DNA of 64,000 nucleotides from Verrucomicrobiaceae bacterium (GCA_015075365.1 JABTUN010000003.1:601060-665059), one strand, 5' to 3'; positions 6,472 through 11,946 are shown, counted from the first letter of the stretch. Numbers and translations: made by a program. Notes: a model not told the origin generated them from the sequence alone.

Positions 6472-6667
6472 TCCGCCGCGACGCCGGAACCATCCGCCGC
6501 GACGCCGGAACTGTCCGCCGCGACGCCGGAACCATCCGCCGCGACGCCGGAACTGTCCGGCGCGACACCGGAACCATCCGGCGCGACGCTGGAACTGTCC
6601 GCCGCGACGCCGGAACTGTCCGCCGCGACGCCGGAACTGTCCGCCGCGACGCTGGAACCGTCCGGCG
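6472..6667. repeat. 21-bp tandem array A, 9 full units plus a partial unit, consensus TCCGCCGCGACGCCGGAAC(CA/TG)
   Basis: Units read directly at 6472, 6493, 6514, 6535, 6556, 6577, 6598, 6619 and 6640. Confidence 0.95.
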
Positions 6668-7193: not shown

Positions 7194-7385
7194 GTAATGA
7201 TGCAGTTGGAGTGAACGAAAGGCGCGGCAGCGTCGTGGAGCGCGCGTGGCAGGCGTCAGCGCGACACCGCCGTCGCCGGCCGGACAGCGCGCATGGGCCG
7301 GAGAATGTGGTTGCGGTGCCCAACAGCGGTGTCGCCGGGGCAAAAGACGTGAGTTTGTGCCGGTGAAACTCGTCGCCCCCCGATC

Positions 7386-7553
7386 CTGCGGGACCGCAAA
7401 CTCGATCTGCGGGACCGCAAACTCAATCTGCGGGACCGCAAACTCAATCTGCGGGACCGCAAACTCGATCTGCGGGACCGCAAACTCAATCTGCGGGACC
7501 GCAAACTCGATCTGCGGGACCACGAACTCGATCTGCGGGACCGCAGCCTCAAT
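7386..7553. repeat. 21-bp tandem array B, 8 units, consensus CTGCGGGACCGCAAACTC(G/A)AT
   Basis: Read directly. Translates as (VPQIEFA)n on the minus strand and (GTANSIC)n on the plus strand. Confidence 0.95.
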
Positions 7554-7816
7554 TTGGAGGACGGTCCATTCTGCCCGCGGCTCCCGGTTTGGGGCTGGCG
7601 GCTGCGCGGTTGCCGGGGAGGTGGCAGGAACCATCCGTCGTGAAAAAGCACCAGGAACGACATACCAGGAGCCTCACAACCCGTCCAGCGGGTTGCGCGT
7701 CCCGGTGCCGCCACCTGACCTTCATCGTCTGCGAGGACTTCTCCAACCATTGCTCAACGGCTCCTCCTGGCCCTGGCAAGTCTCCCTGAACGCTGCGCTC
7801 CGAGGACGACTCGGTC

Positions 7817-7919
7817 CCGCTCTCCGCTCTCCGCCCTTTGCCCTTTGCCCTTCGCCCTCCGCCCTCCGCCCTCCGCCCTCCGCCCTCCGCCCTCCGCCCT
7901 CCGCCCTCCGCCCTCCGCC
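7817..7919. repeat. Heptanucleotide array, 14 units, including 8 consecutive perfect CCGCCCT (7859-7914)
   Basis: Read directly. Confidence 0.95.
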
Positions 7920-8141
7920 GCAGCCCCAATAGCGCCCGTAACCCTCCATCGCCGACCTCAGCGCGGTTTCGGCTGGCAGGGTTTTGCAAAATTTCAAAAA
8001 ACGCGCCATCTCCACGACCCACCAGCCCAGCCGCCGCTCCCCGTCCGCGTTGGTGGGCATCAAAACGCCCGCTGCTTTGACGACCCGCCGCACCCAAGGC
8101 TTGACCTCGGGCGACTTTTTTGCTTCCATCGGCGCATTCAT
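7920..8141 (-). pseudogene. Truncated ORF in the integron-integrase position (probable intI 5-prime remnant)
   Basis: RBS GAAAGGA before ATG 8141, encoding MNAPMEAKKSPEVKPW..RRLGWWVVEMARFLKFCK..YGRY. It is divergent from the attI-like site and runs into the heptamer array. No tyrosine-recombinase catalytic motifs are visible, so the call is positional. Confidence 0.45.
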
Positions 8142-8203
8142 CAAAATCCTTTCTTTCTGTGAACGGCCCTTTTTACGGCACCTCAACCCTGTTAATCCAC
8201 AGA

Positions 8204-8236
8204 AAATTGTGGGCGAATCTGATTCGCCCACAATTT
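8204..8236. promoter_or_regulatory. Perfect palindrome, 16-bp arms with 1-bp spacer, adjacent to attI
   Basis: AAATTGTGGGCGAATC-T-GATTCGCCCACAATTT, read directly. Function unknown. Confidence 0.6.
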
Positions 8237-8239
8237 ATT

Positions 8240-8259
8240 GTGACTAAACAACGTTAGGC
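8240..8259 (+). other. attI: attI-like integron recombination site (core GTTAGGC at 8253-8259)
   Basis: ACTAAACAAC|GTTAGGC resembles the attI1 junction CTAAAACAAA|GTTAGGC. The core is the exact complement of GCCTAAC at the end of cassette 1. Confidence 0.75.
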
Positions 8260-8271
8260 CAAGGAAAAATT

Positions 8272-9147
8272 GTGACGCCAGATGCCATTCGTAGTCTCTG
8301 CAGAGACAGGATCGAGAGCCTTGAACATTGGTTGAGGCGATTGATCGACGATGCACTTTCGGAGACTTACGGCGATTACTTTTCTTACACCGATAGTTCC
8401 GGGAACCGACTACTGAAGAAGTCCCTCGTTGAGAGTGTTGCGTCTCGGAGGGCGACTGAGCCAGGTAGATACCCCCGTCCAGTCGACGCAGTTTTACTCG
8501 AAGACGCGATTTATATCGTGTGTCACCCGAGCCTCTATCACGCGCATTTTCGACTTCCCCTCCAGCTTGCGTTTCCCGACGGGGTCGAAGAAGCCAGAAC
8601 ATTCCTCGGCCGTCTTCTGGCATCACGCAATCACCTTGCCCATGCGAACCCGATCAGCGCCAGACAGGCCGAGCAGGTCTTGTGTTACACTGGTGATGTC
8701 ATAGACTCGCTGAAGGAATATTATACAACATTGGGAATGAACAGAGCATTCAACGTTCCAACAATTCTGAAGGTAACCGACTCGTTTGGGAACGAGTTTA
8801 CACGAAGTCAGATGTCACCAGTCCACGACGGTGGCATTTCGATGAACTTTTCTGATCGCCCAGATATGGCGCTGCGACCGGGAGACACCCTCGTGCTTGA
8901 GATTGACGTTGATCCGGCTTTCGACCCTGAGACTTACACTATCCGATGGGCATCCACTAAAGAATGGGACGGAGGGGATCGAGCATCGCCTGTGGTTACC
9001 ATCCCTGTCAGGAGCCGTCAGGTTGGCCAATTGTGGGATGTTCAGTGCCGAATCACCTCCAAGAAGGATTGGCACCGAATGCACATGGGATGTGACGATT
9101 TCCTGATGTTCCACTATGTCGTCTTACCACCAATCAACGCGGCCTAA
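8272..9147 (+). CDS. Integron cassette 1: Swt1-like HEPN-domain protein with C-terminal beta-rich domain
   Basis: IESLEHWLRRLI N-terminal helix and SRNHLAH (RxxxxH) motif. The TAA stop lies inside the attC R'' box (GCCTAAC). More AT-rich than the backbone. Confidence 0.75.
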   Translation: MTPDAIRSLCRDRIESLEHWLRRLIDDALSETYGDYFSYTDSSGNRLLKKSLVESVASRRATEPGRYPRPVDAVLLEDAIYIVCHPSLYHAHFRLPLQLAFPDGVEEARTFLGRLLASRNHLAHANPISARQAEQVLCYTGDVIDSLKEYYTTLGMNRAFNVPTILKVTDSFGNEFTRSQMSPVHDGGISMNFSDRPDMALRPGDTLVLEIDVDPAFDPETYTIRWASTKEWDGGDRASPVVTIPVRSRQVGQLWDVQCRITSKKDWHRMHMGCDDFLMFHYVVLPPINAA

Positions 9148-9234
9148 CAAAACGGATGCAGGCAACGGATCGAAGGCTATCTGTCGTGTCAGCAACGTCC
9201 TGCGCTCGCCGTCGCCTGATCCGAGTCGTTCGCC
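9142..9234 (+). other. attC: attC site 1 (93 bp)
   Basis: R'' GCCTAAC and R' GTTCGCC. L'' CGGATGCAGGCAACGG pairs with L' CCGTCGCCTGATCCG, leaving an extrahelical base. Confidence 0.9.
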
Positions 9235-9265
9235 CAAGAACACCGCCACCCTACCTGCTAAAAAT

Positions 9266-9544
9266 ATGAATCTCACTGATCCCAGATTGATGGAGCCGAC
9301 CACTATTGCAGACCTTGAGCGGAAGATTGCCGAGGAGGTGCGAGCTACAGGGGAAGATCCGGAGGTTATCGATGTGTTACTCGGTTACAGTGAAGATCCC
9401 GAGACCCTCGTTAAGTCATTCGTTAACGCAGTGGTTACTGTGAACGGCGTTGAACGGGTCGTTAGGGTCCTTCCGAAACCCTCACCAGACGACAAGTCGC
9501 TTCAGCTTAGCCGAAGCATCAGAAGGAATCAGTATAAGGCATGA
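9266..9544 (+). CDS. Integron cassette 2 ORF A, small acidic hypothetical protein
   Basis: 92 aa (MNLTDPRLMEPTTIADL...). Start trimmed from 9116 because the upstream part overlaps attC1. Confidence 0.55.
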   Translation: MNLTDPRLMEPTTIADLERKIAEEVRATGEDPEVIDVLLGYSEDPETLVKSFVNAVVTVNGVERVVRVLPKPSPDDKSLQLSRSIRRNQYKA

Positions 9545-9581
9545 GTTTTGGAATGGTTTCGACGCCAGTAACTTCGCAAAT

Positions 9582-9827
9582 ATGGCCACCACACAACGAT
9601 TCACAAAGTTCATCTACCTCAGGGATCACGGCTCAGTCCTTGCATCGACACGGCAACCAGTTGAGTATTGGATACACCCGGATGAGATCGCATCTTTTCA
9701 GATTGCCTGTCCTAGGACGCCAGTAGTTACAGTGCGGCTTCGCAGCCGTCCTGATGATAGAGGGATTGAGGTTCGGGGCACAGAAGCCACAACCCTTCTG
9801 AACGAGCTCCGCGGTCCGAAACGTTGA
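9582..9827 (+). CDS. Integron cassette 2 ORF B, small hypothetical protein
   Basis: 81 aa (MATTQRFTKFIYLRDHG...), lying between ORF A and attC2. Confidence 0.5.
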   Translation: MATTQRFTKFIYLRDHGSVLASTRQPVEYWIHPDEIASFQIACPRTPVVTVRLRSRPDDRGIEVRGTEATTLLNELRGPKR

Positions 9828-9859
9828 AAATGAATCGTTCATCCACATCACAAGCCAAG

Positions 9860-9952
9860 GGCGAACAAGACGGATGCAGGCAACGGCTCGAAGGCTATCT
9901 GTCGTGTCAGCAACGTCTTGCGCTCGCCGTCGCCTGATCCGAAGCGTTCGGC
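9860..9952 (+). other. attC: attC site 2 (93 bp)
   Basis: R'' GGCGAAC is the complement of GTTCGCC at 9228. R' is GTTCGGC. The interior is nearly identical to attC1. Confidence 0.9.
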
Positions 9953-9965
9953 CGCTCCACACGCC

Positions 9966-10205
9966 ATGCCGAAACGAAAGCTCAAAGTCGGAGACAAGAT
10001 TCGGGTCACGGGATACAGGCCCGGAAAGTATCCGCCCGGCATTGTAGATGACATGGGCACGGAGAAGTTGTTCAGGAGTTTGGTCGGACGCCGCTACACA
10101 GTCAGAGGCTTTGATGGTTGCGGACACATTGAGCTACAGCCGAAGCGACTTCACACGGTTTGGATTGAGTCAGACCTCGTGGAGTTGGCTGGGAGGTCAC
10201 GATGA
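9966..10205 (+). CDS. Integron cassette 3: small basic SH3/KOW-like hypothetical protein
   Basis: 79 aa (MPKRKLKVGDKIRVTGY...), starting 14 bp after the attC2 R' box. Confidence 0.6.
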   Translation: MPKRKLKVGDKIRVTGYRPGKYPPGIVDDMGTEKLFRSLVGRRYTVRGFDGCGHIELQPKRLHTVWIESDLVELAGRSR

Positions 10206-10371
10206 CGCGGCCTATGCGCTGCAGCTCTCCGGTCTGCCACTGCCACGATCCGCGAACGTGGACTTCCCTCCGCTGGATGATGGGGGCGCTGATGCGGTGG
10301 CTGGTTCATGCTCTTGAGGCACCACGGCGCTCCGTCTCACTTCTCACTTCTCACATCTTACGGATCACCCC

Positions 10372-10842
10372 TCAGCTTTGCAGCCCCTGGGTGTCGGCGA
10401 GCTTGGCACCGGTGAGGATGATGCCGGCCTGGGTGCTGCGTTTCAAGTTGGCGGCGATGAGGTCGGCGTCGGTGAAGTCGGTGTTGGTGAGGTTGCAGCC
10501 TTCGAGGTTGGCACCGGAGAGATCCGCGCCGCGGAGGCAGGCGTTGCTGAGGTTGGCGTTGCGCATGGAGACGCCGCCGAGATCGGCGCCGCTGAGGTTG
10601 GCGCCGTCGAGGTTGACGCTGTCGAGATTGGCGCCGCTGAAGTCAGCGCCGGACAGATTCGTGCCGGCGAGGTTGGCCTTGGTGAGGGTGGTGCCCACGA
10701 AGTGCGCCTTCGCCAGATTCAGGTCGTTGAGGATGGCCCCGGCGAGGTTCATGCCGGTTTCGTCGATCTTGCGGCCGCTTTTGCCGCCGCTGTCGAGCCA
10801 TTGGGTGTGCGCGAGGAGTTCTTCGTTCGTGATGCTTGCCAT
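10372..10842 (-). CDS. Pentapeptide repeat protein
   Basis: Runs of A(N/D)LxG/x pentapeptides (ANLAG TNLSG ADFSG ANLDS...). Start trimmed to MASITNEEL. Confidence 0.9.
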   Translation of the reverse strand: MASITNEELLAHTQWLDSGGKSGRKIDETGMNLAGAILNDLNLAKAHFVGTTLTKANLAGTNLSGADFSGANLDSVNLDGANLSGADLGGVSMRNANLSNACLRGADLSGANLEGCNLTNTDFTDADLIAANLKRSTQAGIILTGAKLADTQGLQS

Positions 10843-10893
10843 GCGCGCCCAAGGTGAACGGGTGGAAAGCGCGCGCAAATGCCAGTTTGGGTG

Positions 10894-11946
10894 TCATGCA
10901 CCCGGTTTCCACCGGGGGAAGCCGCAGATGTGGACATTGTCGCCAATGGGCAGCACGCGCGCGTGCTCCAGCTCCACGGAGGCGGGCAGGGGATCTCCGG
11001 CGAGGGAGGGACGCCCGCCGCCGCACAGGAGCGGCGCGATGTACCAGTGCGCCTCGTCCACGAGCTGCTCGCGAAAGGCCTGGCCGAGGATGATGCCGCC
11101 GCCTTCAATGAGGACGGTGACGACACCGCGCTCGCCGAGCTGTTTCAAGACATCGCGCAAATCCAGGCCCTGCATGAGCAGGGTGCGGTCCTTGTGCGTG
11201 TCCGTGAGCAGATGGCACTCCGGCGGAAGATTGCCGCTGCGTGTGAGCACGACACGCCAGGGCTGCTCTTTGCCGGTGGCGGCGCAGCCATCCCGCAGGG
11301 TGAGCTGCGGATTGTCCTTCCGCACGGTCTCCGCGCCGATAAGGATGGCGTCCGCCCGCATGCGCAGCCGGCGTCCATGCATGCGCGCGGCGTCGCTGGT
11401 GAGCCACTGTCCCTCCCCGGCGGGGCGGGTGATGCGGCCGTCGAGGCTCTGGCCCGCCTTCACGATCACATAGGGCAGGCCGGTGGTGACCCATTTGGCA
11501 AAGGGGCGGATGAGCCGCGTGCAATCCTCCAGCAGCACGCCGGAGGTGACCGCGATGCCCGCGCGGCCGAGGATCTCCCGCGCGCGCTGGTGGTGCTTGG
11601 GATTGGGGTCATCCGCACCGAAGACGACGCGCTTCAGGCCTGCGGCCTGGATGGCATCCGTGCAGGGCGGGGTGCGGCCATGTGTGCAGCACGGCTCCAA
11701 GGTGACGTAGATGGTGGCTCCGGGCAGCAGCTTGGGGAAGGCGGTCCTGGCATCCTGGATGGCCACAACTTCGGCATGGGGACCACCAGCCTTGGCATGG
11801 TAGCCCTGGCCGATCACGCGGTCCTGCGCCACGATGACCGCGCCCACCGGCGGATTGGGGCTGGTCAGGCCGATGCCGCGTTTCGCTTGATCGAGCGCCA
11901 GGTGCATCCAGCGGGCGTCGGAGTCGGTTTTGTCATGAATGGCCAT
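10894..11946 (-). CDS. ribD: Bifunctional riboflavin biosynthesis deaminase/reductase
   Basis: PNPPVGAVIV, HAEVVAI, TLEPCCTHGRTPPC, and a reductase part KAGQSLDGRI..IEGGG. Confidence 0.96.
   Translation of the reverse strand: MAIHDKTDSDARWMHLALDQAKRGIGLTSPNPPVGAVIVAQDRVIGQGYHAKAGGPHAEVVAIQDARTAFPKLLPGATIYVTLEPCCTHGRTPPCTDAIQAAGLKRVVFGADDPNPKHHQRAREILGRAGIAVTSGVLLEDCTRLIRPFAKWVTTGLPYVIVKAGQSLDGRITRPAGEGQWLTSDAARMHGRRLRMRADAILIGAETVRKDNPQLTLRDGCAATGKEQPWRVVLTRSGNLPPECHLLTDTHKDRTLLMQGLDLRDVLKQLGERGVVTVLIEGGGIILGQAFREQLVDEAHWYIAPLLCGGGRPSLAGDPLPASVELEHARVLPIGDNVHICGFPRWKPGA

Follow-up and report, generated by a model that had tools for sequence, protein, structure and literature searches.

A predicted Swt1-like HEPN RNase with a C-terminal Ig-like domain, carried as a gene cassette in a Verrucomicrobiaceae bacterium, is a candidate single-gene anti-phage effector

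This study concerns an open reading frame (ORF) at positions 8272-9147 of a stretch of 64,000 nucleotides from a Verrucomicrobiaceae bacterium (GCA_015075365.1, JABTUN010000003.1:601060-665059; the whole stretch is called the window below), whose product is predicted to join an N-terminal HEPN domain to a C-terminal Ig-like domain. The kinds of system to which such a protein may be compared are known: HEPN-based single-gene defence, defence cassettes borne by integrons, and proteins that combine an RNase with an Ig-like sensor. With regard to the HEPN domain, the Swt1-like type (PF18731) falls within the Abi2/Swt1 clade, which includes AbiD, AbiD1 and AbiF (Anantharaman et al., 2013, PMC3710099). 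Within this clade, the bacterial proteins are regarded as active and are linked to defence or restriction-modification, and AbiD/F are single-gene abortive-infection proteins (PMC3710099). With regard to integrons, an 'Integron cassette HEPN' family has been described with the structure PDB 3jrt (Anantharaman et al., 2013, PMC3710099), and Esos and Taranis, two HEPN-bearing cassettes of Vibrio superintegrons, protect V. cholerae from phages (bioRxiv 10.1101/2024.07.02.601686). Moreover, pSlfn5 (RorSlfn5) is a bacterial Schlafen tRNase whose C-terminal Ig-like domain binds a phage tail assembly chaperone, which leads to cleavage of the tRNA anticodon arm (Nat Microbiol 2026, PMC13056530). The family and the architecture of the window protein are undescribed in the libraries and literature that we searched; no paper was found there on a HEPN plus Ig-like defence protein, nor on PF18731 in defence.

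The ORF starts with GTG at 8272, which is the first usable start because an in-frame TAA at 8245-8247 closes the frame upstream; a likely ribosome-binding site, AAGGA, stands ahead of it at 8261-8265. The features of the protein are as follows.

8272-9147, plus strand: ORF for the HEPN-Ig protein, 291 aa, GTG start at 8272 and TAA stop at 9145-9147
8272-8742, plus strand: predicted N-terminal all-alpha Swt1-like HEPN domain, residues 1-157 (AlphaFold2 domain model with a predicted local distance difference test, pLDDT, of 95.2 and a predicted template-modelling score, pTM, of 0.89)
8626-8643, plus strand: catalytic-type HEPN motif R119-N-H-L-A-H124 (Rx4H), assigned from conservation and predicted secondary structure
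8749-9135, plus strand: predicted C-terminal Ig-like beta-sandwich, residues 160-288 (Foldseek against PDB)
9070-9099, plus strand: invariant W267-H268-R269 ... D275-D276 motif, between the last two strands of the Ig-like domain

A preliminary description of this ORF, made from the DNA alone, had reported an intact SRNHLAH motif in a helical N-terminal half followed by about 130 aa of beta-rich sequence, and this layout was recovered. SRNHLAH occupies residues 118-124, with R119 encoded by nucleotides 8626-8628 and H124 by nucleotides 8641-8643. The full-length AlphaFold2 model, built from a 30-sequence alignment (mean pLDDT 91.9), places its helices within residues 3-157 and eight strands over residues 165-284 (pLDDT about 90-96), and the segments LVLEIDVD, YTIRWAS, VVTIPV and WDVQCRIT, quoted in that description as beta-rich, are all predicted beta-strands. 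In the AlphaFold2 models, helix 105-123 ends in the motif, which runs into the loop ahead of the last helix (130-157); in HEPN domains the motif is described as standing where one helix ends and the loop that precedes the last helix begins (PMC3710099).

By itself, the Rx4H motif is near chance and has little meaning: R-x4-H arises in 59% of 20,000 shuffles of the window protein and RNxxxH in 2.4%. It becomes meaningful because of its invariance across the family and the profile matches to HEPN families. The Rx4-6H motif of the HEPN superfamily is present and conserved, and in a set of 112 diverse family members, on which all conservation counts given here are based, R119 is kept in 111, N120 in 108, H124 in 110 and E18 in all 112. 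When these members were scanned individually, 91 of them matched PF18731 (HEPN_Swt1; best E 2.6e-7), one member being aligned over profile positions 1-110 of 115, and the other families matched by several members are mostly HEPN ones as well (STY4199, RiboL-PSP, Apea, MAE_28990, DUF3644, DUF4145 and Abi_2). Ten distant members, scanned singly against PF18731, gave 16.7-21.7 bits or nothing. The profile of 104 family sequences was also compared by hhalign with eight genuine PF18731 domains, gathered from genomes of the same phylum, and aligned with them at 92.7% probability (E 4.3e-7, 101 columns), helix 1 falling on helix 1 and RNxLAH on RNxWAH; a shallower profile of 15 sequences gave 28.8% probability (P 6e-4). 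These matches support the assignment of the N-terminal half as a predicted HEPN domain of the Swt1/Abi2 clade with an intact Rx4H site, in agreement with the HEPN character first proposed for it, and the almost complete conservation of R119, N120 and H124 speaks in favour of catalysis.

The C-terminal half had been suggested to be Ig-like, and the structural comparison points the same way. Foldseek matched the model to nectin-like, titin I21, Rib, siglec and nanobody domains with a probability of up to 1.00, the E-values of these Ig-like matches being weak (1e-3 to 2e-2) and the template-modelling score, normalised to the target, reaching 0.5. Together with the eight modelled strands, the matches support an Ig-like beta-sandwich. 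PDB sequences searched with a profile of each half gave nothing but noise (for the N-terminal half, at E<=10). Within the Ig-like domain D170, G173, D214, Y222, W226, W267, H268 and D275 are almost always kept, and the motif between the last two strands is particularly constant (W267 in 111, H268 in 110, R or K at position 269 in 108, and D275 in all 112 members). On the other hand, the domain has two hypervariable segments with many indels, about residues 181-200 and 231-240, where the entropy is 3.6-3.7 bits against 1.8-2.0 bits for the framework. The Ig-like domain is also more divergent as a whole, its mean identity to the query being 33% against 43% for the HEPN domain.

We consider it probable that this gene encodes a cytoplasmic, stand-alone abortive-infection RNase of the HEPN type that is gated by its Ig-like domain, in other words a one-gene anti-phage 'suicide switch'. 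We infer RNase activity, an anti-phage function and a role of the Ig-like domain as sensor. Judging from HEPN proteins that have been characterised, the HEPN module (residues 1-157) would be a metal-independent endoribonuclease that probably dimerises to form a composite active site. The RNase would be kept inactive in uninfected cells. During infection the Ig-like domain would bind a phage-made molecule, and this binding would release or assemble the HEPN site, which would then cut host and/or phage RNA (tRNA, rRNA or mRNA), so that the infection is aborted. The best mechanistic analogue would be pSlfn5, which is likewise a single gene for an N-terminal RNase and a C-terminal Ig-like beta-sandwich and whose Ig-like domain also diverges faster than the nuclease (PMC13056530). 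No sequence relationship is claimed; the nuclease of pSlfn5 is of the Schlafen/AlbA_2 type, not HEPN, and the window protein's Ig-like domain has its own invariant WH(R/K)..D motif.

The other described systems are more distant in one respect or another. PF18731 proteins share with the window protein an all-alpha domain with an R-N-x3-H motif, but the typical bacterial ones found here are about 1,000-1,200 aa long, compared with the 290-aa HEPN plus Ig-like protein, and fusion to an AAA+ ATPase has been described for the group (PMC3710099). Abi_2 was matched weakly by only 2 of the 112 family members, and Rfam gave no match over the whole window, so that there is no associated non-coding RNA of the AbiF type. 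The 3jrt family, Esos and Taranis resemble the window gene in that a HEPN domain is carried as a single-gene integron cassette. The window family is distinct from 3jrt, which was not retrieved by the profile search of PDB sequences (E<=10) and was not among the 50 Foldseek matches listed. Taranis differs in being AbiJ-like (Abi_C), and Esos, compared here by description only, has 'only a HEPN-like domain'. Finally, AbiJ, AbiU2, ApeA and BxaP/DUF4145 are single proteins with a HEPN effector and an extra domain, without an antitoxin and with abortive-infection phenotypes, but they belong to other HEPN subfamilies and have other accessory domains, and none of their PADLOC models matches the window protein.

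The family is large and its architecture is fixed, since nearly all full-length matches are 280-300 aa long and aligned end to end. At E<=1e-3, a search of clusters at 90% identity yielded 321 homologues, the top ones being 50-67% identical over their full length; all 321 are annotated as hypothetical and none has a Pfam domain. An exhaustive HMMER scan gave 375 clusters at 50% identity. Members occur in Proteobacteria, Verrucomicrobiota, Firmicutes, Bacteroidota, Cyanobacteria, Chloroflexota, Fibrobacterota and Cryosericota. The gene is missing in all 60 relatives that were searched, 36 of them of the same genus, and its guanine-cytosine (GC) content departs from that of the surrounding locus in every case examined, namely in this genome and at 10 other loci. 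The distribution of the family is patchy and mobile, and the window gene was acquired horizontally as an integron-type gene cassette. Two copies, one in an alphaproteobacterial metagenome-assembled genome (MAG; L025 1175-2051) and one in Candidatus Cryosericum hinesii (L026 5028-5888), each consist of two overlapping ORFs. These splits are probably frameshifts and may reflect decaying copies or assembly errors.

To describe the genomic setting of the family, the neighbourhoods of 30 loci were compared. No neighbour gene is conserved across them, save genes common to related prophages. HNH genes upstream in two loci (L050 and L051) were considered as a conserved partner, but at E<=1e-4 they show no homology to one another and the idea was rejected. 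The gene is therefore autonomous, having no partner either in its cassette or across the 30 loci, and the statement of the preliminary description that the cassette carries no antitoxin is borne out: there is only one ORF in it, no cognate antitoxin of the HEPN-MNT type (HepT/MntA) or of another pair lies adjacent, and the ORFs of the neighbouring cassettes have no family match.

Defence islands had been named as the setting in which homologues should be sought, and homologues were indeed found in them, as well as in moron-type slots of prophages and in cassettes. With regard to the islands, Gabija lies 0.9 kb from the gene in a Bacillus MAG (L020), PDC-S60 adjoins it in Psychrobacillus (L018), and the Cryosericum locus (L026) contains RT_UG29 and an MzaA-like protein. 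Similarly, Mrr_cat-nSTAND3 is present in L030, a reverse transcriptase in L033, ABC-3C CTD1 together with an SMC-like ATPase in L040, and HNH, methyltransferase, Trypsin_2 and SLFN_AlbA_2 genes in L051. With regard to prophages, the gene occupies a fixed slot in five Pseudomonas-type (pro)phage loci (L029, L030, L032, L036 and L037), two of which are viral contigs of IMG/VR. In all five it lies on the opposite strand, convergent with the gene for the antiterminator Q, between the regulatory and the late regions. The Q proteins compared in four of these loci are 65-91% identical, and the fifth locus has a Q homologue in the same position. The slot beside Q is of the kind in which accessory (moron) genes typically lie, and it could be a hotspot that holds other cargo.

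Several results weigh against the interpretation as a phage-triggered HEPN RNase. The window protein itself scored 13.1 bits against PF18731 (E 0.12, residues 107-138 only) and did not reach the cut-off of 27.5 bits. The fold comparison, which the preliminary description had proposed as a check of the HEPN half, gave no HEPN structure at significance when the N-terminal model was searched with Foldseek against PDB and BFVD (best E 0.38; Csm6' at E about 3). Since Foldseek returned no significant match, this test is uninformative for the HEPN fold, and PDB may lack fold relatives of this HEPN subfamily. How the two domains are placed relative to each other is uncertain (pTM 0.64 in the full-length model). 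The comparison with defence libraries proposed in the same description was negative for PADLOC, the window protein having no match in PADLOC-DB 2.0 (0 families at E<=1), and none in NCBIfam or PHROGs. The family was absent, by tblastn, from 50,697 GenBank phage records and 72,556 PLSDB plasmids, and a scan for sigma-70-like promoters upstream of the ORF found none. The association with defence contexts is descriptive, as it has no matched control set, and L031, L034, L039 and L049 contain no recognisable defence genes. Moreover, the invariant WH(R/K)..D patch is the chief feature that the gating model leaves unpredicted: a domain serving purely as a sensor of phage proteins, which evolve fast, would not be expected to have it. 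The patch may rather serve substrate (RNA) binding or interdomain contact or coupling.

This last point bears on an alternative that retains the same RNase chemistry and takes the Ig-like domain as a substrate-recognition or oligomerisation module, not as a phage sensor. The domain would then, for example, grip a specific tRNA, rRNA or ribosome surface, or build the HEPN dimer, and the trigger would be a different one, such as the expression level, the loss of a labile host factor or the shutdown of host transcription. W267, H268, R/K269, D275, D214 and D170 are as invariant as the catalytic residues, and such invariance is easier to reconcile with a constant ligand, for instance RNA or the HEPN domain of the same protein, than with a phage protein that evolves fast; moreover, dimerisation is generally needed by HEPN RNases (PMC3710099). 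However, this alternative does not sit well with the two hypervariable, indel-rich segments and with the greater divergence of the Ig-like domain compared with the nuclease, a pattern that matches the proven Ig-like sensor of pSlfn5 (PMC13056530), and an RNase left unregulated and without an antitoxin would be hard to maintain. We regard this alternative as doubtful.

Gating of the HEPN RNase by an Ig-like phage sensor is the reading that we prefer, and it can be extended into a bolder proposal, which we offer tentatively. The family may represent a new class of minimal immune receptor-effector, in which a cytoplasmic Ig-like domain would recognise phage proteins through two hypervariable loops on a conserved framework and the WH(R/K)..D patch would relay the binding to the Swt1-type HEPN RNase. 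Such a compact, swappable, 'antibody-like' sensor module would be traded by integrons and phages across at least eight phyla.

Two other explanations are less likely. The protein could be a stress-response or selfish stabilisation toxin, whose HEPN RNase would induce dormancy or penalise the loss of the cassette array or prophage. It is true that HEPN domains of integron cassettes have been hypothesised to induce dormancy under stress (PMC3710099) and that a family member has toxin-antitoxin genes as neighbours (L049), and stabilising toxin systems are known from cassette arrays. However, no antitoxin or conserved partner occurs in the 30 loci, hence there is no obvious mechanism of post-segregational killing, and the fixed slot in five (pro)phages and the nearby Gabija, DRT, PDC-S60 and ABC-3C fit defence better, which makes such a toxin unlikely. 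A catalytically silent or non-defence RNA-binding or RNA-processing protein that hitch-hikes on mobile DNA is very improbable: the Swt1 HEPN domains of eukaryotes are regarded as binders without activity (PMC3710099), the RNase activity of the family is predicted and some loci have no defence neighbours, but R119, N120 and H124 are conserved near-absolutely and a strictly accessory, patchy and horizontally transferred distribution is unlike that of a housekeeping role.

The window gene, which lies at C3:609331-610203 in the coordinates of its own genome, is part of a small array of cassettes. The GC content of the window, 62-67%, falls to about 53% at 8-10 kb, where the ORF is located. The features of the array are as follows.

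8176-8262, plus strand: attC-like imperfect palindrome before the cassette, with R''-like CCTCAAC at 8181-8187 and R' GTTAGGC at 8253-8259
8254-9228, plus strand: gene cassette with the single HEPN-Ig ORF, bounded by the crossovers that follow G8253 and G9228, with a GC content of about 53% where the flanks have 62-67%
9141-9235, plus strand: attC of the HEPN-Ig cassette, 95 nucleotides, with R'' GCCTAAC at 9142-9148 and R' GTTCGCC at 9228-9234
9859-9953, plus strand: attC of the second cassette, with R'' GGCGAAC at 9860-9866 and R' GTTCGGC at 9946-9952

The HEPN-Ig cassette begins 18 nucleotides ahead of the start codon and contains only one ORF, whose stop codon falls within the R'' box of the attC at 9142-9148. 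Its start, GTTAGGCC (8253-8260), is the reverse complement of its end, GGCCTAAC (9141-9148), and this complementarity fits an excised circular cassette. Similarly, the second attC has GGGCGAAC at its beginning, complementary to the preceding GTTCGCCC, and GTTCGGCC at its end. The attCs at 9141-9235 and 9859-9953 are 92% identical, and their bottom strands fold as R/L-box hairpins. These units are attC-bounded gene cassettes, because head-to-tail complementarity and bottom-strand hairpins are the signature of such cassettes; a single ORF, an attC after it and an R'' complementary to the 5' boundary, as expected of an integron gene cassette, are all present.

The site in front of the cassette has its crossover between G8253 and T8254 and includes a perfect palindrome of 33 bp (8204-8236); an inverted repeat with arms of 35 nucleotides was also recorded for it. 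The bottom strand of the 87 nucleotides at 8176-8262 forms a single long hairpin with bulges (-24 kcal/mol, z = -7.1 with 200 shuffles), and the site looks like another attC-like site, not attI. The preliminary description had called the HEPN-Ig unit the first cassette of its array. It is the first unit that bears an ORF, and to this extent the statement stands; on the other hand, it is not first in the sense of adjoining an integrase or a demonstrable attI; the site at its front folds like an attC.

The second cassette (9229-9953; ORFs 9266-9544 and 9450-9827) and a third, attC-less unit (9947-10205; ORF about 9966-10205, 79 aa) gave no significant match in Pfam, NCBIfam, PADLOC or PHROGs. 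After the third ORF, no attC-like fold was found at 10195-10300 (z = +0.8). An attC detector based on a regular expression plus minimum free energy applied criteria so strict that the attC of the window itself was not recovered.

Cassettes carry the gene in other bacteria as well. In Acinetobacter tjernbergiae and a Moraxellaceae MAG (L009 and L034), it has the same GTTAGGCC...GGCCTAAC boundaries with the stop codon within R'', and in a Spartobacteria MAG (L013) GTTAGGCC stands upstream of the gene. In Pseudoalteromonas holothuriae (L017 6738-7986), the family member is the first unit directly beside intI, and the integrase there is matched in two frames (residues 4-93 and 98-337), which may mean a frameshifted intI. 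The attC candidates of L009 and L017 were called from their box organisation only, and their minimum free energy z-scores are weak (-1.9 and -1.5).

No integron integrase was found in the window by tblastn with the genome's own IntI. A degraded intI immediately upstream of the cassette was considered and rejected, as tblastn gave no match. The only intact intI of the genome is at C3:992989-993969, about 383 kb from the gene. Thus, the array is not a complete integron of intI, attI and the promoter Pc, since no integrase gene adjoins it; it is a small cluster of three attCs without an integrase, if the upstream attC-like site is counted. The claim that a first position is best expressed fails at this locus: it presumes expression from Pc, and with no intI or Pc nearby the argument has no basis here.

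The attC type of the window occurs in six copies in the genome, in three two-site clusters, and none of these clusters was found beside the intact intI or an intI pseudogene. The two further two-site clusters of this type are at C4:338014-338658 and C1:1803354-1804164 and are 79-97% identical to 9141-9235. The genome holds at least three small integrase-less attC clusters and one intact intI. Moreover, the window segment 6719-7631, rich in 21-nucleotide tandem repeats, is 89-96% identical to DNA beside the intact intI (L001, C3:~993 kb) and beside the intI pseudogene (L002/L007, C3:~1040 kb), which has four to five in-frame TGA stops. A repeat element that accompanies integron-related sites could have mediated the separation of the window attC cluster from an integrase.

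As for the surroundings, three tandem arrays lie just upstream of the cassette cluster, at 6480-6660, 7385-7560 and 7830-7920, two with units of 21 nucleotides and one with the heptamer CCGCCCT; they give rise to long spurious repeat-peptide ORFs on both strands. The end of the cluster is abutted by a gene for a pentapeptide-repeat protein (10372-10878, minus strand), followed by a ribD-like gene (10894-11946, minus strand), and with these genes at 10372-11946 the sequence returns to the GC content of the core genome.

Finally, the finding is plausible and of little surprise, and the gene is a good candidate for experiments. If active, it would add a very small (290-aa) and partner-free defence gene to the catalogue. 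None of the Pfam, NCBIfam, PADLOC 2.0 and PHROGs models searched detects the family, despite its range from Pseudomonas prophages to cassette clusters of Verrucomicrobia and Acinetobacter. If the proposed gating is true, the protein would follow pSlfn5 as the second case in which an Ig-like domain is joined to an RNase in bacteria, and it would suggest a general sensor-effector design. The compactness of the protein, its conserved framework with two variable loops and its modularity should make it tractable for studies of how HEPN RNases stay silent without an antitoxin and how specificity is encoded. The gene would also be one more indication that defence genes are stored, outside Vibrio, in integron cassettes and in attC clusters without an integrase.

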